64,000 nucleotides of DNA from the NCBI GenBank assembly GCA_946533175.1, contig CAMNBS010000001.1:35316-99315 (forward strand), written 5' to 3'. This document shows positions 7,642-61,397 of the stretch, in pieces. Positions within the stretch are counted from its first letter, which is position 1. Every line of letters begins with the position of its first letter. The stretch comes from an uncultured Clostridia bacterium. GTDB taxonomy: Bacteria; Bacillota_I; Bacilli_A; RF39; UBA660. A model generated the notes under the pieces. It was given only the letters and a program-made list of their open reading frames with translations. It had not been told where the DNA came from and ran no database searches. The position numbers were made by a program, and so were the translations under genes.

Positions 7642-9204
7642 TTATAAAACATTATCAATATTAATATCTTTATCTGTTATAGTTATTAAAACATCTTTAC
7701 GTTTCTTTTCTTTAGTATTAGTTGCATGCATAGTAACCGTTTTTTCATACATATTACGAACAAATCTTGCATTTCCAAAATTCTTCATGTTTTTATTTTT
7801 AATAATTATTTCTTTGGCTTTATCTAATGCGTCATTTGTAATTTTGAAACCTGCTTTATTAACCATTCCTTTAAATATTTCTAACAATTCATCTACAGTA
7901 TAATCTTTAAAATTTAAAGTATAGCCAATACGTGATGCAATACCTGAATTTGAATTAATAAAATCTTGCATCTCTTTTGTATAACCTGCAAAAATAACAA
8001 CTAAGTTATCACGATTATCTTCCATCGCTTTTATAAGTGTTGCAATAGCTTCATCATTATAAGAATTGTTTTTGCTGGATAAGGAATATGCTTCATCAAT
8101 AAATAATATTCCCCCTAAAGCTCTTTCAATAACACTGTATGTTTTTATTGCAGTTTGTCCAACATATTCCGCCACTAAATCTTTACTTGATACTTCAATT
8201 AGTTTATTTTCTTTAATATAACCTAAATTATATAAAATACCGGATAAACATCTAGCAACTGTCGTTTTACCAGTTCCAGGATTTCCTAAAAATAACATAT
8301 GTAAGTTAACATTAGCAATTTTTAAATCACTTTTTTCTTTTAAACTAATCAAATTAACCAAATCATACAATACCTTTTTTACATCATTAAGTCCAACCAA
8401 GTCATTAAGTTCAGAAAATATCTCTTCTGTACTCTTAACTTCTTTAATTTTAGGAACTTCTTTTTTAAAAGATAAATAATTTATTAATTTATCCCGATAA
8501 GATGAATAATTTATTATATCCTTATGCGTATTAGTAATATAATCTAATAATAATATATTATTAGATTCATCTAAACTAATCTTACTTAAAACTTCATGAT
8601 AAATATCCTGTATATCTGGAATAATTTCAATTAATTTAAAATTAAAGTACTTATTAGTAAGTTCATTATCAAAAGAAGTAAAAAGACTTATATCATCCTT
8701 ATTACCACTTAATAAGGTAATATGATTAGATAGATTATTTTTCAATTGATAAAGAAATAACTTTTTATTATTTTCATCAAGTAATAGAAATCCTTTTAGA
8801 TCAGTTAAAACAACAAGACCATTTTTATCATAAATATCTTTTATATCAACTTTATTTGATAATTCATACATTGATAATTTATATACACTATTATTCTTTA
8901 TATAATGATTATTTTTAACACTTTTTGAAAGTATTTCACTAATTTTATTGACATTTTCTGTGTCATTACTATCTATTATAATATTAAAATCAATATAATT
9001 TTTTTCTTCATTATTAGTATATTTACTCATATACTCAATTATTTGTTTAAGTAAGTTTTTAGATTCATTATCAATATATATAGAATTTATCTCATCTAAT
9101 ATATTAATTTCATCATCATTATTCTTCACTTTTTCTACGTTAATTTCATTCTTTTCTACTTTAAAAAAATCATTATATATATCATTAAAATATCTATTAT
9201 TCAT
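7642..9204 (-). CDS. AAA+ ATPase of the SpoVK/CbbX/EccA clade with a unique ~270-aa N-terminal extension
   Basis: Walker A LFLGNPGTGKTTVAR, Walker B ILFIDEAYSL, sensor region and ...FAGYTKEMQDF..., all typical of SpoVK/CbbX. N-terminal half is Asn/Lys-rich and unrecognised. Confidence 0.7.
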   Translation of the reverse strand: MNNRYFNDIYNDFFKVEKNEINVEKVKNNDDEINILDEINSIYIDNESKNLLKQIIEYMSKYTNNEEKNYIDFNIIIDSNDTENVNKISEILSKSVKNNHYIKNNSVYKLSMYELSNKVDIKDIYDKNGLVVLTDLKGFLLLDENNKKLFLYQLKNNLSNHITLLSGNKDDISLFTSFDNELTNKYFNFKLIEIIPDIQDIYHEVLSKISLDESNNILLLDYITNTHKDIINYSSYRDKLINYLSFKKEVPKIKEVKSTEEIFSELNDLVGLNDVKKVLYDLVNLISLKEKSDLKIANVNLHMLFLGNPGTGKTTVARCLSGILYNLGYIKENKLIEVSSKDLVAEYVGQTAIKTYSVIERALGGILFIDEAYSLSSKNNSYNDEAIATLIKAMEDNRDNLVVIFAGYTKEMQDFINSNSGIASRIGYTLNFKDYTVDELLEIFKGMVNKAGFKITNDALDKAKEIIIKNKNMKNFGNARFVRNMYEKTVTMHATNTKEKKRKDVLITITDKDINIDNVL

Positions 9205-9255: not shown

Positions 9256-9277
9256 TTATCCACATAATTGTGGATAA
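9256..9277. promoter_or_regulatory. Perfect 22-bp palindrome of two consensus DnaA boxes (TTATCCACA-TAAT-TGTGGATAA)
   Basis: Read directly. It ends 5 nt from the -35 of the AAA+ ATPase promoter and sits just after the telA terminator hairpin (9281-9299). Confidence 0.6.
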
Positions 9278-9280
9278 AAA

Positions 9281-9299
9281 AATAAGCCTTAAGCTTATT
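9281..9299 (-). terminator. Putative terminator hairpin at the telA stop
   Basis: AATAAGC-CTTAA-GCTTATT followed by a U-run on the mRNA strand; AT-rich stem, so moderate strength. Confidence 0.35.
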
Positions 9300-10473
9300 C
9301 TTTTTCTTGAACATTGATTTCAAGTAATTTATCTTTAAGTTCCTTTTCAAGTTGTTCAAGTTCTTTTTCAGATTCTTGACGTTTAATTCGTCCATTTTGG
9401 TGAATTTCAATAACTTTATCAATTGTTTCCACAATATCTTGATTAGTCTTACGAATCGTTTCAATATCCACAATTGCGCGTTCTGATTCTTCAGCAATTT
9501 TAATTGAACCTTGTTTTAATGTTTCACTATTTTTCTTTAACATATCATTAGTAAGTTTTGATACAGCTTGTTGATTTTTAAGAGCTTTTTGGGCATTATT
9601 AATGCCAAGAGCAAGAACCATTTGATTCTTCCATAAAGGAATCGTATTTGTAATTGAACTTTGTATTTTTTCTACTAATTCTGCATCATTATTTTGTAAA
9701 AGTCTTATTTGTGGTGCCATTTGAATAGAAATCATTCTAGTCGTTTTTAAATCATATATTTTCTTTTCTAAACGATTAATAATTGCTTCCATATCTTGAA
9801 CCTTTTGTATATCTAAATGTTCTCCTGATTCTTCAGCTATCTTTTTTAATTTAGGTAGTTCAACTTCATTAAGTTCTTCTATCTTCTTTTCACCAGCAAT
9901 AATATATAAAGATATTTCTTTAAAATATTCTAAGTTTTTTTCATACATAGTATCAAATAAATTAATATCTTTTAACATTTGTAACTTATCTTTTTCAAGA
10001 CCATTTTCTATTGTGCCAATATTTTTTTCAATTTTATTATATTTGGCAATTAATTTATCAAACTCTCTTTTAGCAGTGGAAAATAGTTTTTCTAATAAAG
10101 ATCTCCTTTGATTATCATCAATAGCTTTATCAAAAGATTTAATTTCAGCAACTAAACTACCTAATAACTCTCCAACTTCACCAGTATCTTTTGTACGAAC
10201 ACTTTCTAAAACAGTATCTGAAAATTTAGAGATTTTTTCTTGTGCAGGAGCACCAAATTGTAATATCTGAGTTTGATCATAAACATTAATCTCATTATTG
10301 AACTTTTCAATTGCTTTTTTTTCTTCTTCGCTTAAATTATCATAATTAAGTGATTTTTCAATTTTAGCATCTGTTACTTTCTTTTCATCTACTAACTTTT
10401 CTAAATCTTCCTTTTCTTGATTACTCGTTTTAACTAATTTTAATTCCATTTTTTTCCTCCTATTTAAGACCAT
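9295..10473 (-). CDS. telA: Toxic anion resistance protein, TelA family (YaaN/YceH-like)
   Basis: Architecture and motifs of Bacillus TelA homologues: QILQFGAPAQEKISKFSDTVLESVRTKDTGEVG, LYIIAGEKKIEELNEVELPKL, QIRLLQNNDAELVEKIQSSITNTIPLWKNQ, C-terminal EKELEQLEKELKDKLLE. Confidence 0.8.
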   Translation of the reverse strand: MVLNRRKKMELKLVKTSNQEKEDLEKLVDEKKVTDAKIEKSLNYDNLSEEEKKAIEKFNNEINVYDQTQILQFGAPAQEKISKFSDTVLESVRTKDTGEVGELLGSLVAEIKSFDKAIDDNQRRSLLEKLFSTAKREFDKLIAKYNKIEKNIGTIENGLEKDKLQMLKDINLFDTMYEKNLEYFKEISLYIIAGEKKIEELNEVELPKLKKIAEESGEHLDIQKVQDMEAIINRLEKKIYDLKTTRMISIQMAPQIRLLQNNDAELVEKIQSSITNTIPLWKNQMVLALGINNAQKALKNQQAVSKLTNDMLKKNSETLKQGSIKIAEESERAIVDIETIRKTNQDIVETIDKVIEIHQNGRIKRQESEKELEQLEKELKDKLLEINVQEKE

Positions 10474-13866: not shown

Positions 13867-14718
13867 TTATCCTTTCATTATATATGTAACGTAATATTCT
13901 TCATACGTAATACCTAGCTTATTAATTTCAGTAGCTACTTTTTCACCAACGTAACGAAAATGCCATGGTTCATATTTATAACCAGTTATAAAGGTTTTTC
14001 CTTCCAAATACCTTAATATAAACCCATATTTATATGAATTCTTTATAAGCCAAGCATATTCTTTCGTTCTTTCAAAATGAGCTTTAGAACTTGCTGTATT
14101 AATATCGCTTGCTAACCCAGTTTGATGTTCAGAGGTTCCAGGACGAGCCGAATATGTATCAGCTTTACTAACACCATCACGACTAACATAACTATTATAT
14201 AAATACTTTTGAGTAGCATAACTACGATACCCTGAAACGTTTCGAAGAGATATTCCATCTTTTTTAGCAGCATCAACCATTTTCATAAAGAAAGAAGCAG
14301 CTTCTTTTTGCATTTGCCCACCACCATATTTTCCCGGCAAATTTACTAAGTTTGGAACATAATTACTTTTTAAAGTGTGATACTTATTACATAAAACAAG
14401 TATTCCATCACTCATATCAGTATTTTCCATATTAGTATAAAAACTATGATCTAATCCAATATTAACATAAGTAATAATGGTATCATCATTGTAATCACTA
14501 TGAAGCTTTTTATAGGCCAAATATCGATCATAATATTTTTCAATATAATTAGCATTAACGATATTAAACTCATTACTATGTTCTAAATAAACTGGTTCAG
14601 CATTATATTGCATATTTACCTTTGTTTCTAATTGATGATATACTAAAAATTTCTTCCAAACAAAAATACTAATGAAGATAATAATTAAATATAACAACAA
14701 TAATAATATTTTTTTCAT
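13867..14718 (-). CDS. D-alanyl-D-alanine carboxypeptidase, peptidase M15B (VanY-like), membrane anchored
   Basis: VanY/M15 motifs SGYRSYATQKYLY and ARPGTSEHQTGLASDIN; N-terminal TM. Confidence 0.8.
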   Translation of the reverse strand: MKKILLLLLYLIIIFISIFVWKKFLVYHQLETKVNMQYNAEPVYLEHSNEFNIVNANYIEKYYDRYLAYKKLHSDYNDDTIITYVNIGLDHSFYTNMENTDMSDGILVLCNKYHTLKSNYVPNLVNLPGKYGGGQMQKEAASFFMKMVDAAKKDGISLRNVSGYRSYATQKYLYNSYVSRDGVSKADTYSARPGTSEHQTGLASDINTASSKAHFERTKEYAWLIKNSYKYGFILRYLEGKTFITGYKYEPWHFRYVGEKVATEINKLGITYEEYYVTYIMKG

Positions 14719-33182: not shown

Positions 33183-33345
33183 TTTGCCTCCTTTATATTA
33201 TTATCTATTTCCTGTTACCATAAATAAAAGTCCTTATAGCATAGAATAAGGACTTTAATTCATAAAGATTCTTGTCCTCGGTAGGATTTACATATTACCT
33301 ACTGTCTATGGCACCAACAAACATAGTTATTATAACATAATTTTA
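33183..33345 (-). promoter_or_regulatory. rplJ 5' leader (candidate L10(L12)4-binding autoregulatory leader)
   Basis: 163-nt untranslated gap between rplA and rplJ with two stable hairpins (AAGTCCTTAT...ATAAGGACTT; GGTAGG...CCTACT), as expected for the Firmicute L10 leader. Confidence 0.3.
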
Positions 33346-46593: not shown

Positions 46594-48039
46594 CTAAAAA
46601 TTCCCTTTCTTATCTATTTTGATAGTAATTTGATACATATCATCAAAGTTAATTTCATCTGTATCAATTTTAAGTTTACTTTTTTCCTTAATTCGATCAA
46701 TCGTTTCTTTTAATTCTTCAATTATTTCATCGATATTATCAATCATATCAGGTCTTGAAATATCAACATAATCAGGATTATCTTCTACATAATTATTGGC
46801 GTTAAAATTACTAGTTATTGGTGGAGTAACATCATTTAACATAACATTATTCTCATTAATATTATTACTTGAAGGCATTTCGTTATTATAGTTAGGAATA
46901 ATATTGGTAATATTATTTAATTCATTTTGATTACTATTTTGCTCATTCAAGGAATCAGTATAATTATTCTGAACATTTGTGAATTCATTAGTTGGAGTAG
47001 GGGAGCTTGTATCTACTGAATCATTAATATTTTGTTCATTAGAATTATTATTATAATTATTTAAGAAGCTCATAAAGTTATTACTATCATTACTATCCAA
47101 TACATTATTTTCAGGACTTTCTGATACACCAATATTATTTATATAATTATTATCATTACTATATGAATTAGAATTTTCATAATTATTTAAGAATGAATTA
47201 TTTTCTGATGGTGCTGTTTCATTCAAACTTGCTTTGTCATAATTATTTAAAAAGCTTGTAAAATTATTATTGTCATTATTAGTTAAATTTTCAGATGAAT
47301 GCATTCCATTATCAAAATTATTCAAGAAACCAATTCCACTATTTTCATTAGGAATACTGTTATTCATATTATTATTTAAATTATTATCAATAAAACGATT
47401 ATTTATTCCATTTGGTATCCAATTATTAGTATTATTATTTTCTTCATTCATCATTTTTATTTCACTATCCAATTCTCTAACGGTCATTCTTTTTTCTTTT
47501 ATTTTATTGAGTAATTCTATTTGTTTTTCACTATTTTTAACTGCTAATAAACTTCGAGCATGTCTTTCACTTATCTCATTCTTCATTAGAGCATCTTGTA
47601 CTTCAATTGGTAAAGTAAGAAGTCTTAATTTATTAGCTAAAGTAGACTGACTAATTCCCAACGATTTAGCCAACTCTTCTTGAGTCATATTATTACTCTT
47701 TAGTATACGTTCAGAAGTACGAGCTTCTTCAATAGCCGAAACATCTCTTCGTTGAGCATTCTCTATATATGCAACAATAGAACTCTCTTTATCATCCAGA
47801 TTTTTTACGATAGCCGGAATTTTAGTTAATCCTGCAAGAGCAGATGCCTTATATCTACGTTCACCAGCAATTATTTCATACTTATTTTCAAAAGGACGCA
47901 CTAGAATTGGTTCCAAAACACCATGTTGTCTTATAGAATCAGCAAGTTCATTCAATGCTACTTCGTCAAAAATTTCTCTTGGCTGAAAACGATTAGGAAT
48001 AATATCATCTAATTTTATGTACATGATTTCATTTTCCAT
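46594..48039 (-). CDS. ParB/Noc-family paralogue with a ~250-aa Asn/Ser-rich repeat insert
   Basis: N-terminal ParB box (IIAGERRYKASALAG) and HTH (QEELAKSLGISQSTLANKLRLLTLP). Then a low-complexity region with four copies of an (N)F(T/M)SFLNNY-like motif, and a short charged C-terminal domain. Confidence 0.7.
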   Translation of the reverse strand: MENEIMYIKLDDIIPNRFQPREIFDEVALNELADSIRQHGVLEPILVRPFENKYEIIAGERRYKASALAGLTKIPAIVKNLDDKESSIVAYIENAQRRDVSAIEEARTSERILKSNNMTQEELAKSLGISQSTLANKLRLLTLPIEVQDALMKNEISERHARSLLAVKNSEKQIELLNKIKEKRMTVRELDSEIKMMNEENNNTNNWIPNGINNRFIDNNLNNNMNNSIPNENSGIGFLNNFDNGMHSSENLTNNDNNNFTSFLNNYDKASLNETAPSENNSFLNNYENSNSYSNDNNYINNIGVSESPENNVLDSNDSNNFMSFLNNYNNNSNEQNINDSVDTSSPTPTNEFTNVQNNYTDSLNEQNSNQNELNNITNIIPNYNNEMPSSNNINENNVMLNDVTPPITSNFNANNYVEDNPDYVDISRPDMIDNIDEIIEELKETIDRIKEKSKLKIDTDEINFDDMYQITIKIDKKGNF

Positions 48040-48137
48040 TATTTTTACCTCTTTTCATTCTAATACACCTATATTAAATATTATACAAAAAGAAAAACAT
48101 TTTTTCAATGTTTTTCGTAATTATTTTTGGATTACAT

Positions 48138-48554
48138 TTATTTTGACATTGTTTTACTATGTAACTGCTTATATTCTTTATTTAAATCATCTAATATGTC
48201 AAATAGTGTTCTTTCATATAATCGACTCTCTTCTTTTTCGAAGAATAAGGGTAATGTAGCCATTAAATCATATATTTGTTGCATAATATATATAATTTTT
48301 CTATCAAATAATTCAGATGATTCTACACTATGCGTTTCTTGATAATCATCCCTTATTTTATTCATGTCTTCAATATCACGATAAATTAATTTCATAAAAT
48401 TGACAATCACATGTCTTATTTTTTTATTAGATTCACCCGATAATTGAAGTGTAGTTACAAATTCTTTTAATGATGTACCACCTGGAATATAATCTTTTAT
48501 TTTTTTATCCTCTTTTTTCATAATTTTCTCCTTTTTATTTTTTGCTTTTTCCAA
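48138..48554 (-). CDS. Hypothetical protein (138 aa), paralogous to the C-proximal part of the upstream 414-aa protein
   Basis: Shares the motif series (II)Y(IM)QQIYDL / YYHYLICNYIQIIDEV and LFDILDDLNKEYKQLH / LLNVLNDLNDQYHDLH with the neighbouring gene; overlaps it by 20 nt. Confidence 0.45.
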   Translation of the reverse strand: MEKAKNKKEKIMKKEDKKIKDYIPGGTSLKEFVTTLQLSGESNKKIRHVIVNFMKLIYRDIEDMNKIRDDYQETHSVESSELFDRKIIYIMQQIYDLMATLPLFFEKEESRLYERTLFDILDDLNKEYKQLHSKTMSK

Positions 48555-49779
48555 TATTTGATGGTAATTTGGGATGTCTTAATTCTTCATATTGTCTAAC
48601 ACAACTATTGCGTATCCCTAATAAAATATCCTCTATTCTTTCTTTTTCAATTTCAGAATATAGTTTTGGTACAATTTCTAAAAGCTTATTAATACTTTGC
48701 TGAAAAAACTCAATTCCTCCATATAAAGTACTTACTATTCTTTTTTCTAATTTTAATAATTTTATATTTTCAGTTTCATAATTACCATTTTCACATAGCA
48801 AATTTTTATGATACTTTAATTGTTCGTGAAGTTTAGAACCATCGAAATTAAAACGAAAAGGTTCATATCCTTCTTTCAAATCAAGATGTCTTTCCCATAA
48901 CACAACTATTTCGTTTAGCAAAATTAAAAATAACGACTTAGCATCTTCTTCATTACCTGTTTTTAAGGTTTCCATTATTTTCTCAACTTTATAATCAAAT
49001 AAATAAGGATCATATCCTACACCATACATTTTTATTTCAGAATATCCGTATGAAGAATCAGTTGAATTTTCTTGATCTTTTTCAGGGGCTTTACTTTTAG
49101 ACTTACGGCCATCTTTATAAATAATTCTATGAAGATCATGATATTGGTCATTTAAATCATTAAGTACATTTAATAATGATGTAAGTAAGCCGCTTTTTGT
49201 AGGACTTTTATAATATACTTCATCAATAATTTGAATATAATTACATATAAGATAATGATAGTATAAAAAACTTCCTTCCAAATACCTTTTTATTTTATCA
49301 TCTAAAAAGTTAGCATCAATAGGTAAATTATGTTTAAAAAACAATGAAAATTTACTTTTAAAAAGAGGATATTTATTCAAAGATTCTACAATTTCACTAC
49401 AATCACCACTTAAAAGAAAATCTTTATACATTTTCTTTAAAAGAATATGAGATTCTATATTTCTTACTAAATCATCTAATTTTACTTCCATTATTCCATA
49501 AGCCAAGTCTAAATTCCCTGAAGAAAAATTAGTACGAATACTACTTAATCCATCAGAATCAATTCTGTATCCTGCGGCTGACATTTTTAATTTTACTGTA
49601 GTTGAAGCAAAATAATTTTTTATATTTCTACTTATTTCACTACTTATTACGGAAGCTTTGGGCTTTTCTTTCTTTTTTTCTTCTTCTTGTCTTTTTTTCA
49701 TAAAAGAAAACATATCCTTTCTTTTTGGACTTTCCTTTTTCTTATATAATTCATCATTATCTTTCATAGTACACTCCAT
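48535..49779 (-). CDS. Hypothetical protein (414 aa) with N-terminal K/E-rich low-complexity tail
   Basis: Long ORF between noc and rsmG; no recognisable family; internal region paralogous to the 138-aa neighbour. Confidence 0.5.
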   Translation of the reverse strand: MECTMKDNDELYKKKESPKRKDMFSFMKKRQEEEKKKEKPKASVISSEISRNIKNYFASTTVKLKMSAAGYRIDSDGLSSIRTNFSSGNLDLAYGIMEVKLDDLVRNIESHILLKKMYKDFLLSGDCSEIVESLNKYPLFKSKFSLFFKHNLPIDANFLDDKIKRYLEGSFLYYHYLICNYIQIIDEVYYKSPTKSGLLTSLLNVLNDLNDQYHDLHRIIYKDGRKSKSKAPEKDQENSTDSSYGYSEIKMYGVGYDPYLFDYKVEKIMETLKTGNEEDAKSLFLILLNEIVVLWERHLDLKEGYEPFRFNFDGSKLHEQLKYHKNLLCENGNYETENIKLLKLEKRIVSTLYGGIEFFQQSINKLLEIVPKLYSEIEKERIEDILLGIRNSCVRQYEELRHPKLPSNIGKSKK

Positions 49780-49831
49780 TTTTAGAATATATTATTTTTG
49801 TTTTATTGTCAATAAAATACTAGTTTAATAA

Positions 49832-50470
49832 TTACTTTCTTTTAATAACAATAATCGTTCGATTGCTATTTTCTATTGGTAAGAGAAACTTTTCTATTTT
49901 GACTATTTTTATTTTTTTATTCTTTTTTATTTCTTCTATTTCATCATCACAATTAGCTTTCATCGGTAAAAAAGATCCATTTTTATTTAATAGAGGTAGA
50001 CAATAATCTAAAAGTTTATTTAATCGACTTACTGCACGACATGTAACGATATCAAATTGATTGCTTTTAATTTTAGCATAATCTTCTGCTCGAATATGAA
50101 TAGTATTAATATCTTTTAAATTTAATTTTTGAATTACTAAATTTAAAAAATTAATTCTTTTTTGTAAAGCATCAACTAAAGTTATGGATAGAGTAGGGAA
50201 GACTATTTTTAAAACAATACCAGGAAATCCTGCTCCGGTTCCTATATCACATAATGACATATTATGATGTAAATCAACAACTTTCGATAAAGTTATTGAA
50301 TCATAAAAATGTTTTAAATATACATCTTTTTCTTCAATAATTCGTGTTAAATTAATTTTCTGATTCCATTCAACTAATAGGTTATAATAATCATCTAATT
50401 GTTTTAACTGCGTTTCATTTAAAGAAATATTTATATTTTTTAATTCTCTAATAAATTCTTCCTTATTCAT
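49832..50470 (-). CDS. rsmG: 16S rRNA (guanine527-N7)-methyltransferase
   Basis: SAM-binding DIGTGAGFPGIVLKI; position next to mnmG. Confidence 0.85.
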   Translation of the reverse strand: MNKEEFIRELKNINISLNETQLKQLDDYYNLLVEWNQKINLTRIIEEKDVYLKHFYDSITLSKVVDLHHNMSLCDIGTGAGFPGIVLKIVFPTLSITLVDALQKRINFLNLVIQKLNLKDINTIHIRAEDYAKIKSNQFDIVTCRAVSRLNKLLDYCLPLLNKNGSFLPMKANCDDEIEEIKKNKKIKIVKIEKFLLPIENSNRTIIVIKRK

Positions 50471-50471
50471 T

Positions 50472-52340
50472 TTATTTTCCCTTTTTTAAATATATGCTAA
50501 GCATAGTTATATCGCTTGGATTTACACCACTAATTCTTGTCGCTTGTCCCAACGTTAATGGCATTACTTTTTTTAATTTATCTCTAGCCTCACTAGCTAA
50601 ATTAATAACTAAATCATAGTTAATATCGTTAGGAATTTTAATATTTTCCATTGCCTGCATTTTTTCGACTTCTTTTTCTTCTTTACGAATATATCCTTCA
50701 TATTTTATGGATATTTCAACTTGTTCAATAACTTCATCACTATATATATTAGGAACTTTACCAACTTCAATTAATTGATTAATAGTAATCTCTGGTCTTT
50801 TAATTAGTTCATATAAACTTATTCCATTCATAATTCTTGAAGTATTTAACTGATTTAACAAATTATTTTCACTAGTAACTATTTTTGTTGTACATAAATA
50901 ATTCTTTAATTCGTCAATTTTTTTAAGTTTTTCCTTAAATTTATGATATTTTTCATCATTAATTAAACCTAATTGATGTCCATATTCACGAAGTCTTATA
51001 TCCGCATTATCATGTCTTAATAATAAACGATACTCGGCACGAGAAGTTAACATACGATATGGTTCTTTTGTACCTCTTGTCGTTAAATCATCAATTAATA
51101 CGCCTAAATAAGCTTCATTTCTTCCTAAAATAAAGGGTGGCTTGTTTTCTATTTTCAAAGAAGCATTTATTCCCGCTAGTAACCCTTGTCCAGCAGCTTC
51201 CTCATATCCACTTGTACCATTAATTTGACCAGCCGTAAATAAATTTTCTAATATCTTATTTTCTAAGTTTTTTTTCATTTCTAATGGATCAATTGCATCA
51301 TATTCAATTGCATAAGCATATTTAAGAAAAACTGCTTTTTCTAATCCAACTAAACTATGAACCATTTTTTCTTGAACATCATGTGGCATACTTGTTGAGA
51401 AACCTTGAAGATAAATATCATCGTAATATCGACTTTCAGGCTCTAAAAACAATTGATGTCTTTCTTTATCTGCAAAACGAACTACTTTGTCTTCAATAGA
51501 AGGACAATATCTTGGACCAATACCATGAACATATCCTCCATACATACTCGATTTTTTTAAATTATCAGTTATTATTTCATGTGTATATTGATTGGTATAA
51601 GTTAAATAACATGGTATTTGTTCATCCAATTGATAAATAGGGGAAAAATCATATGAAAAGCTTCTTAAAACACTATCTCCATCTTCACGAGTTAATTTAC
51701 TATAATCAATTGAACTCTTTAAAAGACGAGGAGGAGTACCAGTCTTTAATCTTTGAATTGTAATTCCATATTTTCGAAGATTATTAGATAAATTTTTAGA
51801 TTCTTTTTCACCATGTGGACCACCAGGAGTTCTTTTATCACCAACTAAAATATCGGCCTTTAAATATGTTCCAGTTGTTAAAATAACCACTTTACTATAT
51901 ATTTTTTCTCCATTTTCTAAAATAACACCAATTACTTTATTATTAGCAACAATTAAATCATCAACAAAAGCCTCTTTTATCCATAAGTTTTCTTGTTTAT
52001 TTAAAGTAGTCAGCATCTCTTTTGGGTATGTTATTTTATCTGCTTGAGCACGCAAAGCTTGAACTGCAGGGCCCTTTTTAGTATTAAGCATTTTTAATTG
52101 TAATAGGCTTTTATCAGTATTTATTCCCATTTCTCCGCCTAAAGCATCTATTTCACGAACAAGAATTCCTTTTGCTGGTCCACCAATGCTTGGATTACAT
52201 GGCATATCCGCAATATTATTAATATTTCCTGTTATCAAAAGAGTAGAATGCTTCATTCTACTAGCTGCAAGAGAAGCTTCACATCCTGCGTGACCTCCTC
52301 CAACAACAATAACTTCATAGTTCACGTTCATCACTTCCAT
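50472..52340 (-). CDS. mnmG: tRNA uridine 5-carboxymethylaminomethyl modification enzyme MnmG
   Basis: FAD-binding VIVVGGGHAGCEA; 622 aa. Confidence 0.95.
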   Translation of the reverse strand: MEVMNVNYEVIVVGGGHAGCEASLAASRMKHSTLLITGNINNIADMPCNPSIGGPAKGILVREIDALGGEMGINTDKSLLQLKMLNTKKGPAVQALRAQADKITYPKEMLTTLNKQENLWIKEAFVDDLIVANNKVIGVILENGEKIYSKVVILTTGTYLKADILVGDKRTPGGPHGEKESKNLSNNLRKYGITIQRLKTGTPPRLLKSSIDYSKLTREDGDSVLRSFSYDFSPIYQLDEQIPCYLTYTNQYTHEIITDNLKKSSMYGGYVHGIGPRYCPSIEDKVVRFADKERHQLFLEPESRYYDDIYLQGFSTSMPHDVQEKMVHSLVGLEKAVFLKYAYAIEYDAIDPLEMKKNLENKILENLFTAGQINGTSGYEEAAGQGLLAGINASLKIENKPPFILGRNEAYLGVLIDDLTTRGTKEPYRMLTSRAEYRLLLRHDNADIRLREYGHQLGLINDEKYHKFKEKLKKIDELKNYLCTTKIVTSENNLLNQLNTSRIMNGISLYELIKRPEITINQLIEVGKVPNIYSDEVIEQVEISIKYEGYIRKEEKEVEKMQAMENIKIPNDINYDLVINLASEARDKLKKVMPLTLGQATRISGVNPSDITMLSIYLKKGK

Positions 52341-53758: not shown

Positions 53759-54541
53759 TTAACTCCTTTTCTTCTTTTTTAAATTATTATTACAATATTT
53801 TAAAATATTATCACATATTTTATATTCCTCAATTAGTTCTTCATAGCTTAATGTTAATAAATTACTATAAATATCATTTTCATGACAATAATTAATAAAT
53901 TCTTCCATATTATCAATTATTCTTTGACAAGCATCAATTAATAATGTTTCATCATACTCATCTTGATTCAAATAATATAAGGTAATTAAATGAAAAATAG
54001 TTGTATTAACTATCATTATTTCATAAAAATCCAATGTATTATGATGTTCTTTTTGATACTCTTGATATAGATTCATTACATCTTTCAATATATTAAATAA
54101 TTTATCATTATATTTTTTTATTTTAAACAATTTATCACATGAAATATTCTTTACTATTTTACTAATAAAAATATCAAATTCAGTTAAAACCTTTATTTTT
54201 TCTTCATCCATATCACTGCTAATTAACTTATCAGATGGCAAAAGCAAACACTGAATATCTTGCATTAAATATAAACTATCTTCATAAGAAAAAACACTAT
54301 TTTCATCATCTAGCATTATTTTTGCCATTAGTTTAAATAAATCTTCATCAATTAATTGTAATTTTTTTTCTTTCTTGAAAAGATATAAGTCATCCATTAG
54401 GCATAATAAATCATTAATATTCATTTTAACATACTTTAAAAATAATCTTATTTTAGATAAAATAACAGATGCTTCTTCTATAGATAAACTTTCACCTGTT
54501 TGTTTTTCATATAGCCCAATCAAATAATAAGAATGAAACAT
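53759..54541 (-). CDS. Hypothetical acidic, helical protein (260 aa) translationally coupled to mnmE
   Basis: Stop TAA-TT-ATG (2 nt) to the mnmE start; no motif recognised; not present in the canonical Bacillus jag-mnmE interval. Confidence 0.45.
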   Translation of the reverse strand: MFHSYYLIGLYEKQTGESLSIEEASVILSKIRLFLKYVKMNINDLLCLMDDLYLFKKEKKLQLIDEDLFKLMAKIMLDDENSVFSYEDSLYLMQDIQCLLLPSDKLISSDMDEEKIKVLTEFDIFISKIVKNISCDKLFKIKKYNDKLFNILKDVMNLYQEYQKEHHNTLDFYEIMIVNTTIFHLITLYYLNQDEYDETLLIDACQRIIDNMEEFINYCHENDIYSNLLTLSYEELIEEYKICDNILKYCNNNLKKKKRS

Positions 54542-56929: not shown

Positions 56930-57886
56930 TTATCCCCTCATAATTACATAAGTGTAATACATTAAGAAAACCATTAAAAACATAATTCCTTCTTTTTTGC
57001 TAATTTTTCGGTCATTTAATGTAAATACAAATAATAAAATAGCACTTATAAGCATCGCAATAATATCAATATAATTAAAATTAATTTGATTTATTCCACC
57101 AAAAATGGCCACAGGAAGTCCTAAAACTAATCCTATATTAAAAATATTACTTCCTACAACATTTCCAATTGCTAAATCAGATTCTCCTTTTTTAGCAGCA
57201 ACTACTGAAGTAACTAATTCAGGAAGAGAAGTTCCCAAAGCAATAATTGTTAAACTAATCATTTTTTCACTAACATTTAAGCTTTTGGCAATACTAGATG
57301 CTTGATTGACTACTAAATCACTTCCTAAGACAATCATGGCAATTCCTAAAACAGTAAATATTATAGCTTTTAATAATGTCATTTTGGCTTTTTCTTCATT
57401 ATCTCTTTTCTTATCTTTAATACATACTGATACTAAATAGTAAACAAATACTGTAAAGAATAATAGTAAAATGATTCCATCACTTCTAGTAAAATTATTC
57501 GCTATATCGGCATTGAAAAAACTATTAGAAACCAATACACCAAATAATGTTGTAATTAATAAAAGAATCGGTAATTCTTTTTTTACAGTATTCTCCTTAA
57601 CCACTAATACGCCAAATAATGAGCTTACTCCTAAAATCAATAAAATGTTCAATATATTACTTCCTATTACGTTTCCTAAAACAATATCATAATTACCAGA
57701 CATAATAGATTTTAGGCTAACTGCAAACTCTGGTGCAGATGTACCAAAAGCAACAATAGTTAAACCAATAACTATTTTAGGAATTTTAAAATTCGTTGCG
57801 GTACTACTAGCGCCATCTACAAAAAAATCAGCCCCTTTAATTAAAATAACAAACCCCACAATTAATAATAAAATTTGTAATAACAT
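56930..57886 (-). CDS. Ca2+/Na+ antiporter, CaCA (YrbG) family
   Basis: Two alpha-repeats GNVIGSNILNILLILG and GNVVGSNIFNIGLVLG; 10 TM helices. Confidence 0.8.
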   Translation of the reverse strand: MLLQILLLIVGFVILIKGADFFVDGASSTATNFKIPKIVIGLTIVAFGTSAPEFAVSLKSIMSGNYDIVLGNVIGSNILNILLILGVSSLFGVLVVKENTVKKELPILLLITTLFGVLVSNSFFNADIANNFTRSDGIILLLFFTVFVYYLVSVCIKDKKRDNEEKAKMTLLKAIIFTVLGIAMIVLGSDLVVNQASSIAKSLNVSEKMISLTIIALGTSLPELVTSVVAAKKGESDLAIGNVVGSNIFNIGLVLGLPVAIFGGINQINFNYIDIIAMLISAILLFVFTLNDRKISKKEGIMFLMVFLMYYTYVIMRG

Positions 57887-57951: not shown

Positions 57952-58079
57952 TTATACACACTTTTCCACCAAATGTTTAAAACTATTTTTTGACAGTGAA
58001 TAAAATATTTTTATAATTGTGGAAAACTTACATATTTATTGTTATTTCATCATTTATTTGTGCATAACTTTGTGGATAA
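57952..58079. promoter_or_regulatory. oriC upstream DnaA-box cluster (incA/B-like) and dnaA promoter region
   Basis: TTATACACA (57952-60), TTTTCCACC (57962-70), TGTGGAAAA (58018-26), perfect TGTGGATAA (58071-79), within an AT-rich 290-nt gap before dnaA. Confidence 0.6.
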
Positions 58080-58175: not shown

Positions 58176-59537
58176 ATGAACAATGACCTTTTATGGTCAA
58201 AAGTCTTAAATAAAATCCAAACCGAAGTTAATTCAATTGTTTTTAAAACATGGTTTAAAGAAACAAAACTTTATACCATCGAGAATAATATTGCTACTAT
58301 AATTGTTCCAATGGAAATACATAGAAAACGTCTTTTGGACACTTATAAAGATTTAATTACCGGAGCTTTACTTGAAATAACCAATGTAATATATGATATT
58401 AATATTTTATTGGAGGATGAAATAATTATTAACAAAGAAGTGGATATTTCTATTCCAAAGAAAGAAGAAACAATTACTTTTAAGCACGCTTCTAATCTTA
58501 TTAAATCATATAATTTTGAAAACTTTGTTGTTGGAAATAGTAATAAACTTGCCCATGCATCAGCTCTAGCGGTTGCTGAAGCTCCAGGTCAAACATATAA
58601 TCCACTTTTTTTATATGGAAGTAGTGGGCTTGGAAAAACCCATTTAATGCATGCGATTGGTAATTATATTGAAGAAAACAGTAATAAAAAAGTATTATAT
58701 GTTTCATCACAACAATTTATTGATGATTTTTCTAAAATAAGTAGAAGAGATGATAATAACAAAACTAATTATGATTATGCCGATTATTTTAAAAATAAGT
58801 ATCGTTCATTAGATGTTTTAATTATTGATGATATACAATTTCTCGCAACGAAACCTAAAACACAAGAAGAATTTTTTCATACTTTTAATATACTATATAA
58901 TGATAATAAACAAATTATTATATCAAGCGATCGCTCACCAAATGATTTGAAATTATTAGAAGAACGTTTAAAAACAAGATTCTGTTGGGGATTAACAGTA
59001 GATATTTATCCTCCAGAATTTGAATTAAGGAAAAACATTTTAAAGAAAAAAATTCAAGGTGCTAATATTCATCAAAAAATACCTGATGATGTTATTGAAT
59101 ATATTGCCTCTAATATGACTAGCGATGTAAGAAATTTGGAAGGCGCTATTAATAGGTTAATGGCTTATTCATTAATGATGGGATATAATGAAATCAATTT
59201 ACCAATGGCTGTTGATGCTTTAAAAGATACTATTAATAAAGGAACAAGTGAAAAGACTAATATATTAAAAGTCCAAAAAGCTGTTGCCGATTATTTTCAA
59301 ATCTCTGTTGATGATTTAAAAAGTAAAAAAAGAAGTGCTTCAATTGCTTTTCCTAGACAGATAGCAATGTATTTATCTAGAACAATTTTAAATGAATCAT
59401 TTGAGCGTATTGGACTTGAATTTGGAGGAAAAGACCATTCTACGGTAATGCATTCATGCGATAAGATAAAAGGGGAAATAAATAATAATATGGAAATAAA
59501 AAATTCAGTTGAAAAAATTAAAGAAAGTATTCTATAA
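58176..59537 (+). CDS. dnaA: Chromosomal replication initiator protein DnaA
   Basis: AAA+ motifs (YGSSGLGKTHLMHAIG), box VII and C-terminal DNA-binding domain; RBS GGGAGGTGAGG. Confidence 0.95.
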   Translation: MNNDLLWSKVLNKIQTEVNSIVFKTWFKETKLYTIENNIATIIVPMEIHRKRLLDTYKDLITGALLEITNVIYDINILLEDEIIINKEVDISIPKKEETITFKHASNLIKSYNFENFVVGNSNKLAHASALAVAEAPGQTYNPLFLYGSSGLGKTHLMHAIGNYIEENSNKKVLYVSSQQFIDDFSKISRRDDNNKTNYDYADYFKNKYRSLDVLIIDDIQFLATKPKTQEEFFHTFNILYNDNKQIIISSDRSPNDLKLLEERLKTRFCWGLTVDIYPPEFELRKNILKKKIQGANIHQKIPDDVIEYIASNMTSDVRNLEGAINRLMAYSLMMGYNEINLPMAVDALKDTINKGTSEKTNILKVQKAVADYFQISVDDLKSKKRSASIAFPRQIAMYLSRTILNESFERIGLEFGGKDHSTVMHSCDKIKGEINNNMEIKNSVEKIKESIL

Positions 59538-59575: not shown

Positions 59576-59689
59576 TTATCCACATCTATAAAAATCTTAT
59601 TTTGAAATAATATTAACATATATGCTTTTTATCCACATATTTCCACATTGTTATTATAATTATTAAAATAAAGAAAGAAGGAATTATAA
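59576..59689 (+). promoter_or_regulatory. oriC downstream DnaA boxes (incC-like) followed by an AT-rich, triplet-periodic unwinding region
   Basis: Perfect TTATCCACA at 59576-84 and 59629-37, degenerate ATTTCCACA at 59640-48, all in the same orientation. Then TGT TAT TAT AAT TAT TAA AAT AAA, with A in the middle position of nearly every triplet (DnaA-trio-like). Confidence 0.55.
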
Positions 59690-60805: not shown

Positions 60806-60953
60806 ATAAGAGATTAAAAAGTGGTTAAATATCCACTTTTTTTGTGGAAAAAAGAATTTTTAATTTACAATTGACAAATTTCGACATTATTTGACATTTT
60901 TAATTACTATTATATTGGGCATTCACTTTGGTGAAGAGAAGGGAGGTTATTGG

Positions 60954-61397
60954 ATGGATTCTTATGAAATTAATAAGGATACTTGTGCTATTGTAAGTTT
61001 AAATAGTAACGTAACAAAAATTGTTGAAAAAGAAGATGATTATTTTATTAATAAGAATAGTTATGAAGTAATGGAAGATAGTTGTCAGTATTATGGTAGT
61101 TCATGTGAAGGAAGAATGAAGGGAACGAAAATGATTCTTGGTAGTAATTATAAAGTACCAATAATAATTGAAGAAAGTAATGAAATAATCTTTTTTCCTA
61201 CTGAATCACCTACATCTGAAAGTTGTATTTGGCTATCGCTAAATCATATTAAGATGTTTGAAAAAAGCAATGGTATGACAAAAGTTACTTTTGATTCTGG
61301 TAAAACAATGATTATCAAAATGTCTCCATCAGCATTTGAAATGCAATTATTACGAGCTAATAGACTTGGATCAATTATGCGCAAAAGAAAAGAATAG
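60954..61397 (+). CDS. comK: ComK-family competence transcription factor
   Basis: Conserved blocks align with B. subtilis ComK: SYEINKDTCAIV, SCQYYGSSCEGRMKGT, KVPIIIEESNEIIFFPTES, CIWLSLNHIKMF, KVTFDSGKTMIIKMSPSAFEMQLLRANRL. Start set to the ATG at 60954 (RBS GGGAGG 7 nt upstream). Confidence 0.75.
   Translation: MDSYEINKDTCAIVSLNSNVTKIVEKEDDYFINKNSYEVMEDSCQYYGSSCEGRMKGTKMILGSNYKVPIIIEESNEIIFFPTESPTSESCIWLSLNHIKMFEKSNGMTKVTFDSGKTMIIKMSPSAFEMQLLRANRLGSIMRKRKE

Follow-up and report, generated by a model that had tools for sequence, protein, structure and literature searches.

Gene organization of the A/B locus

We analyzed a stretch of 64,000 nucleotides (nt) from an uncultured Clostridia bacterium (GenBank assembly GCA_946533175.1, contig CAMNBS010000001.1, positions 35,316 to 99,315 of the forward strand), hereafter the window. 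At positions 48138–49779, two minus-strand open reading frames (ORFs), here called genes B and A, fill the space between rsmG and a noc-like parB paralogue, as described by a first-pass annotation made from the DNA letters alone. Our analysis showed that the second module of the protein encoded by gene B is present in the rumen population as deeply diverged alleles, with the rest of B and all of A nearly invariant.

The two ORFs had been annotated as proteins of 414 and 138 amino acids (aa) overlapping by 20 nt. These sizes and the overlap are an artefact of taking the longest ORFs. The ATG codons that follow ribosome-binding sites give products of 410 and 127 aa and a gap of 13 nt, and the proteins recorded on other contigs of the same organism have exactly these lengths, the 410-aa product being called on two of them. 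The features of the locus are as follows.

49784..49812, minus strand: promoter-like site before gene B (TTGACA, 17-nt spacer, TATTCT; 10 of 12 consensus matches), within the 64-nt rsmG–B spacer
48535..49767, minus strand: gene B, 410 aa; the ATG at 49767 follows a GGAG (414 aa if read as the longest ORF, from 49779)
48522..48534, minus strand: B–A spacer of 13 nt, read directly from the sequence, with the AAGGAG ribosome-binding site of gene A
48138..48521, minus strand: gene A, 127 aa; ATG at 48521 preceded by AAGGAG at canonical spacing (the longest ORF, 138 aa, has a TTG start at 48554)
48087..48116, minus strand: hairpin resembling a terminator, downstream of gene A; 10-bp A/U-rich stem, then UUUUU; identified by fold energy
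48080–48108: promoter-like site of the noc-like gene (TTGAAA, 17-nt spacer, TATAAT; consensus match only), overlapped by the hairpin

The site before gene B is a consensus match only, and the region holds as many sites of this kind as would be expected from shuffled sequence. The hairpin has a folding energy of −9.5 to −10.3 kcal/mol (z = −3.7, reached by 0 of 200 shuffles); it was missed by a terminator scan because its stem is short of G-C pairs. In the order promoter-like site, B, gap with ribosome-binding site, A and terminator hairpin, these putative elements show a small operon of its own. Since the pair has its own promoter-like site and terminator, it would not be co-transcribed with noc.

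Internal repeat of B and its relation to A

Analysis of the protein sequences revealed a module of about 140 aa, whose copies are located as follows.

49132..49548, minus strand: repeat 1 of B (residues ~74–212), first ~140-aa helical module, with motifs YYHYLICNYIQIIDEV and LLNVLNDLNDQYHDLH
48580..48987, minus strand: repeat 2 of B (residues ~261–396), second copy of the module
48150..48299, minus strand: residues 75–124 of A, a helical hairpin probably homologous to the last two helices of the module, with IIYIMQQIYDL and LFDILDDLNKEYKQLH

Repeats 1 and 2 of B align collinearly, with a Smith-Waterman score of 82 against 33.1±5.7 for shuffled sequences (z = 8.6, reached by 0 of 3000 shuffles); BLASTP aligned them with E = 1e-5 and 22% identity over 140 aa. 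The diverged allele of repeat 2 described below gave the same outcome against repeat 1 (z = 8.3). On these alignments the internal repeat of an all-helical module in B is secure.

The first-pass annotation called the two proteins mutually paralogous on the basis of a collinear series of shared motifs. As a statement about the whole proteins this did not stand: pairwise alignment of A with B was at chance level, the Smith-Waterman score being reached by 185 of 2000 shuffles, and BLASTP found one 17-aa segment (E = 0.002). Whole-protein paralogy was rejected, and a domain-profile test was put in its place. In hmmsearch, a profile built from the B repeats matched residues 75–124 of A, at the equivalent end of the module, with 13.6 bits, a score reached by 1 of 5000 shuffled A sequences. 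A was also the top non-self match of this profile among 450 ORFs from the window and the relatives' loci (E = 0.0018), hhalign gave E = 7.5e-4, and segment-restricted Smith-Waterman comparison of A with three B-repeat sequences gave z values of 5.7, 5.4 and 4.4. The first 74 residues of A showed no significant similarity to the module.

The motifs aligned by the profile are exactly those paired in the first-pass annotation, so the pairing itself was upheld, and it reached significance after the internal repeat of B was taken into account. From these comparisons, A probably belongs to the family of the B module, which we hold with good but incomplete confidence. By the order of its helices, A would be a shortened copy without the two short middle helices. 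The duplication of one domain that had been proposed is thus borne out in an enlarged form: the locus is probably a tandem triplication of one module, with two copies fused in B and the third, in which only the last two helices are detectable, split off as A.

Strain variation in the second module of B

A and B otherwise occur only in three sheep-rumen metagenome contigs, which are clearly from the same species. The 1367-nt scaffold L001 aligned to the window without gaps and with 98 mismatches, nearly all of which lie in one part of gene B.

48571..48938, minus strand: strain-hypervariable patch in repeat 2, B residues 277–399; 94 substitutions in 368 nt and no insertions or deletions (indels) between the window and L001

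The patch holds 94 of the 98 mismatches (25.5% divergence). The other 4 were found in the upstream overlap and none downstream, a part that includes all of gene A. By the Nei-Gojobori method, synonymous divergence (dS) in the patch is 0.75 and nonsynonymous divergence (dN) 0.24, a ratio of 0.32; dS is 0.02 in the upstream part of B. The differences between the window and L001 fall at third codon positions in 45 cases, at first positions in 29 and at second positions in 24. This bias toward third positions, together with the dN/dS of 0.32, indicates that B is coding. At the protein level, 45 of the 123 residues of the patch differ and 25 replacements change charge, while hydrophobicity is kept at 47 of 52 hydrophobic positions. 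Such a pattern would suit a divergent B allele that retains the fold and carries a re-patterned surface.

Over 7233 nt, contig L016 and the window differ at two positions only, 48673 and 48653. Both changes are nonsynonymous (I365M and E372G) and both lie inside the patch; E372G is shared with the L001 allele. Contig L015 stops at 48939, a single base short of the first variable site, where a bubble in the assembly graph would be expected to break it. It carries an in-frame 3-nt deletion at 49686–49689, in the tail of B, which is the sole indel seen. Gene A shows no difference (100% identity) on any of the three other contigs on which it occurs. The two observations on L016 and L015, which are independent, agree with a population polymorphism, and the pattern of the patch reads as that of a recombined, old allele.

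Targets of diversity-generating retroelements also vary locally toward the 3′ end of the gene, and this mechanism was considered. However, the patch differs from such targets in its length of 368 nt, its mixed substitution spectrum, its synonymous-rich pattern typical of an old allele, and the absence of a template-repeat copy in the window. The spectrum is not adenine-specific: 35 of the 98 changes are from adenine, about the adenine content of the coding strand. Since the spectrum is of this kind and the window, the part of the genome that was searched, contains no further copy of the patch, such an element is an unlikely source; no search aimed at a reverse transcriptase was made.

Search for homologs of A and B

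The statement in the first-pass annotation that no known family is recognizable was confirmed by all of our searches. No family for A or B was found in Pfam, NCBIfam, PHROGs or PADLOC. In Pfam at E ≤ 1 there was nothing for B, and only RNA_pol_Rpb4 (E = 0.12) for A, whereas the neighbours noc and parA do match ParB and ParA models. PHROGs matched the pair only at E > 0.01, and among the PADLOC-DB component models A matched only DarG (E = 0.02, 12 bits) and B none. No relative of A or B was found among PDB sequences, in IMG/VR, among INPHARED phages or among PLSDB plasmids. A word-indexed search of 5.8 billion proteins, with the single proteins or the repeat profile as query, likewise found no relatives.

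An exhaustive phmmer search of B against 1.84 billion representatives returned a single non-self match, P0004 (E = 1e-12). This 1284-aa protein consists of 12 near-identical repeats, each of which adds a weak match to the score; it was rejected as spurious. The designed repeat protein 7rdr was rejected in the same way, its score also being made up of summed repeat matches. The A/B family lies outside every library searched and is therefore formally new.

Insertion of the operon into the rsmG–noc junction

The gene order on the minus strand is rnpA, yidC, jag/khpB, a 260-aa orphan, mnmE, mnmG, rsmG, B, A, the noc-like gene, parA, parB and a DUF951 gene. The main neighbours are located as follows.

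58176–59537: dnaA
52401–53756, minus strand: mnmE
50472–52340, minus strand: mnmG
49832–50470, minus strand: rsmG (PF02527, 2.4e-52)
46594–48039, minus strand: ParB_N/HTH_ParB protein of 481 aa at the noc position

The genes dnaA, dnaN and recF lie 8–10 kb from the pair, with DnaA-box clusters on both sides of dnaA, so the annotated ori-proximal setting is correct. After its helix-turn-helix (HTH) domain, the protein at the noc position has an asparagine-rich low-complexity region of about 250 residues. Noc of Bacillus subtilis carries an N-terminal amphipathic helix; the protein here begins directly at the ParB N-domain without such a helix, and its relatives likewise have a short N-terminus and variable N-rich regions.

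An RsmG search limited to one genome per species gave 13 loci from uncultured metagenome-assembled genomes (MAGs) labelled Bacilli or Erysipelotrichaceae, with RsmG identities of 45–74%. The locus of the closest relative, L002, ends inside rsmG, and the other 12 were informative for the rsmG–noc junction. In 9 of the 12, rsmG is followed by a noc-like gene after 33–110 nt, compared with 1792 nt in the window; the junction is therefore normally tight and the pair an insertion into it, as had been annotated. The three remaining loci each carry an orphan gene after rsmG. L008 has a gap of 402 nt that holds a 91-aa orphan on the other strand, and L007 and L014 have an unrelated N-rich orphan of 392/393 aa and no noc at this place. 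No homolog of A or B was found by tblastn in any of the 13 loci.

L007 6372–7550: orphan of the 392/393-aa N-rich class, after rsmG
L014 10754–11935: orphan of the 392/393-aa N-rich class, after rsmG
L008 10726–11001, minus strand: 91-aa orphan in the rsmG–noc gap
L014 6601–8192: two extra genes between mnmE and mnmG

The A/B operon is thus an insertion in the rsmG–noc spacer, seen in a single, poorly sampled lineage of uncultured Bacilli from the sheep rumen. Genes have been gained repeatedly in the ori cluster of this clade, and several of its junctions carry unrelated lineage-specific genes.

Predicted structures of A and B

AlphaFold2, run on the single sequence, predicted A to consist of a short N-terminal helix and three antiparallel helices of about 30 residues each (32–63, 66–93 and 96–124), with a predicted local distance difference test (pLDDT) score of 85.1 and a predicted template modeling (pTM) score of 0.77. 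A is confidently predicted to be an antiparallel three-helix bundle. Foldseek with this model found generic three-helix bundles only, the best at E = 0.22 and none significant, and nothing significant among viral structures (BFVD). The BAG domain, the MIT domain, FliS and Der f 21 superpose on the three helices with template modeling scores of 0.55–0.66. However, their best E value is the same 0.22 and their identity to A is 4–19%, and none of them is a tandem triplicated module in a bacterial operon of this kind. The three-helix bundle is a very common fold and carries no functional information.

The model of B is all-helical. Its predicted layout is a disordered basic tail (1–70), a helical part (71–222), a disordered linker (223–252) and a second helical part (254–397). 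The K/E-rich N-terminal tail mentioned in the first-pass annotation is present.

49558..49767, minus strand: B residues 1–70, basic K/E-rich low-complexity tail, predicted disordered (isoelectric point 9.86, net charge +8.5, pLDDT 32–49)

The best-predicted parts of the model lie in repeat 2: as means over blocks of 10 residues, pLDDT is 79–88 over residues ~261–290 and 85–92 over ~351–390, and below 50 at 299–338. Foldseek of the B model gave no match at E < 0.05. Matches of this low-confidence model to MukF/MukBEF (E 0.7–1.9, template modeling scores 0.2–0.3) and to Rap (E 1.5–2) are not evidence and were set aside. An amphipathic membrane-targeting helix, KDMFSFMKKR, was considered in the tail of B and dropped because the hydrophobic-moment scan was not discriminating. 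Neither A nor B contains a hydrophobic stretch that could serve as a signal peptide or cross a membrane. Our analysis showed A and B as soluble all-helical proteins, according to these predictions.

Repeated helical-bundle modules behind a flexible tail are an architecture typical of scaffolds and adaptors. B resembles spectrin-like and EzrA-type scaffolds in this respect but has no sequence or fold match to them and no transmembrane anchor, and its module has two extra short helices. A receptor of the RRNPP type (Rap or Rgg) with its peptide gene was also looked for. There was no TPR or Rap match in Pfam, and A is a 127-aa predicted helical bundle without a hydrophobic leader.

Possible roles of the A/B operon

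The first-pass annotation raised two possibilities, a role in chromosome or origin biology and a small mobile cassette, and our data favour neither. An accessory segregation or origin factor that works with the Noc-like ParB paralogue or ParAB, for example as an adaptor or tether, would fit the position of the pair between rsmG and the noc-like gene, about 8–10 kb from dnaA and the DnaA-box clusters, and the basic tail of B; the MukF/MukBEF matches, very weak and non-significant, point in the same direction. However, this suggestion comes down to position, since the likeness to the Noc/ParB-ParA cluster is one of physical neighbourhood only. The pair has none of the domains of that cluster (Pfam found no ParB_N, HTH_ParB or ParA/MinD-type ATPase domain in A or B), is a transcription unit separate from noc by its promoter-like site and terminator, and is not conserved with the cluster: all 12 informative relatives lack the pair but retain the cluster itself. 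No parS site was found in or next to the locus at ≤2 mismatches, and the only match resembling a Noc-binding site lies at 14329, outside the locus; both consensus sequences are those of B. subtilis and may differ in this lineage. There are also no DnaA boxes in the A/B locus, a hypervariable domain is not expected in a segregation protein, and other junctions of the same cluster hold unrelated orphans. We consider a segregation or origin role unlikely. The remains of a mobile cassette, prophage or plasmid left in the rsmG–noc spacer would account for a lineage-specific insertion of orphan proteins, which are of a kind common in phage accessory regions, and the weak PHROG matches (E > 0.01) agree with it. 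But only two genes lie between rsmG and noc, neither an integrase, transposase or other recombinase, and no convincing direct or inverted repeats flank them; phage, virus and plasmid collections hold no relatives of the pair, and nothing significant was found for A among viral structures. At third codon positions, the GC content of A (0.156) and of B (0.134) lies within the range of the neighbouring genes (0.11–0.17). A mobile origin is accordingly rather improbable.

The extreme orphan status of A and B might also mean that they are young ORFs in functionless or decaying DNA, with no contribution to fitness, and that the patch reflects relaxed constraint. An AT-rich genome readily yields helix-prone ORFs rich in K, N, I and E, and a dN/dS of 0.32 is elevated compared with usual housekeeping genes. 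On the other hand, this ratio is well below 1 and goes with a third-position excess, both frames are intact on all four contigs with the sole indel in frame, and both genes have strong ribosome-binding sites. Hydrophobic positions are largely kept between alleles that are 37% divergent in protein, and A is predicted to fold confidently from a single sequence. The chance that the genes are functionless appears slim. Another proposal derives the second module of B from a partial duplication of mnmG, covering the helical C-terminal region of MnmG (residues ~469–568). BLASTP of B gave E = 3e-4 against MnmG of the nearest relative and E = 0.003 against that of the window, in collinear alignments, and Smith-Waterman z values were 4–7 for both B alleles, though only against the two closest MnmG proteins. 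These values are not significant after multiple testing, and an unrelated 101-aa ORF has a higher z. The tblastn match had E = 0.036 in a small database, the profile score fell from 13.3 to 5.2 bits once repeat 1 joined the profile, and B has no Pfam match to the GIDA C-terminal models (PF21680 and PF13932). The similarity of B to MnmG is probably due to chance, and we regard an origin from mnmG as quite unlikely. Finally, small helical-bundle proteins in tandem paralogous arrays, with no signal peptide and with a variable C-terminal domain in the larger protein, recall secreted helical effectors or polymorphic toxins of a type VII-like system, in which B would be a variable C-terminal effector and A its chaperone or immunity partner. 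Yet there is no WXG100, LXG or toxin domain match in Pfam, the variable domain is a paralogue of the conserved first module of B and not a separate toxin fold, the downstream gene A does not co-vary, and no secretion genes were identified within the window. This is a very unlikely explanation.

We favour reading the locus as an operon, specific to one lineage and evolving fast, whose soluble helical-bundle proteins have one variable surface and may serve in conflict or recognition; we hold this reading tentatively, at somewhat short of an even chance. The paralogous modules might pack together, so that B and A would form a hetero-oligomer. The second module of B would then act as a variable recognition surface whose diversity could be kept by balancing or diversifying selection, and its role may be strain-specific recognition or conflict, such as sensing or neutralizing a protein of a phage or mobile element. 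The position near the origin may be incidental, since lineage-specific genes seem to be tolerated at several ori-cluster junctions in this clade. We infer that the pattern of variation fits strain-specific recognition or conflict better than a housekeeping role in segregation.

In its sharply bounded diverged segment between near-identical flanks, and in the change of its surface with hydrophobic positions kept, B resembles the hypervariable recognition domains of conflict systems, such as the variable sensors of fused toxin-antitoxin or defence proteins and the C-termini of polymorphic toxins. Several points weigh against the favoured reading, including differences from those systems. Neither A nor B has an effector, catalytic or DNA-binding domain or a PADLOC match. 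No defence or mobile genes were identified beside the pair, which does not lie in a defence island. A is invariant, though co-variation would be expected if A bound the variable module. The dN/dS of the patch, 0.32, is below 1. L001 is a metagenome scaffold of 1.4 kb and could be a chimera assembled across a strain bubble; in that case too, the sample would have to contain the divergent segment with boundaries that match. Given a dN/dS below 1 and the comparison of two alleles, the patch could also be a neutral import from a related species and not a selected polymorphism. The link of A to B is modest, the next-best unrelated ORF scoring 10.3 bits with the repeat profile against about 13 for A, and the B model has low confidence overall (pLDDT 53.7).

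A bolder form of the favoured reading is that a young family arose by tandem triplication and that its second module is held as ancient, surface-divergent alleles, forming an undescribed strain-specific recognition or conflict system near the origin that has no enzymatic domain. As a whole we judge this fairly unlikely. If true, such alleles would bear the mark of balancing or diversifying selection acting on a recognition surface inside the cell, for phage or mobile-element sensing or for immunity. Of all the features, only the sharply bounded, deeply diverged allelic patch could hint at something larger, a recognition surface that diversifies at the population level. The locus further shows a conserved origin-proximal cluster taking in lineage-specific genes, and it suggests how a new protein family could emerge through tandem multiplication of a helical module, with a stop codon and a ribosome-binding site splitting off the last copy. 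For annotation, a place beside noc and parAB is no ground for assigning a segregation function.

Other observations in the ori region and the window

The 260-aa orphan between jag/khpB and mnmE (53759–54541, minus strand) is acidic (isoelectric point 4.8), has a GC content of 20% and showed no match in Pfam, NCBIfam, PHROG or PADLOC. It has no counterpart in the relatives: jag and mnmE abut in L008, and the gap is 300 nt in L005. In L015 it is identical save for one single-nucleotide polymorphism. It contains a similar-looking motif, LFNILKDV..Y, but is unrelated to A and B (−3.6 bits with the B-repeat profile). The 91-aa orphan of L008 was also rejected as a relative of A. It has a 15-aa match to A, LFDIxDxLNxEY, where the profile finds nothing, and the match was treated as chance; it calls for caution with motifs of this kind in AT-rich helical proteins.

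MnmG of the closest relative (L002, CACZNM010000094.1, a rumen MAG) is 79% identical to that of the window. No mnmE homolog was found in the ~8 kb of this contig upstream of mnmG, so the cluster appears to be rearranged there.

Around dnaA, a Na+/Ca2+ exchanger gene (56930–57886, minus strand) lies between rnpA and dnaA, and a ComK-family gene (60891–61397, plus strand; PF06338, 5.6e-43) sits between dnaN and recF, where a competence regulator would not usually be found. The DnaA-box clusters that flank dnaA are at 57952–58079 and 59576–59637 and probably form a bipartite oriC. Far from dnaA, two perfect DnaA boxes, TTATCCACA, were found in inverted orientation 4 nt apart at 9256–9277, in the spacer between the genes at 7642–9204 and 9295–10473; they may be part of a DnaA-regulated promoter. 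The sole Rfam match at the gathering threshold in the window is a ribosomal protein L10 leader (RF00557, 52.9 bits) at 33214–33329 on the minus strand.

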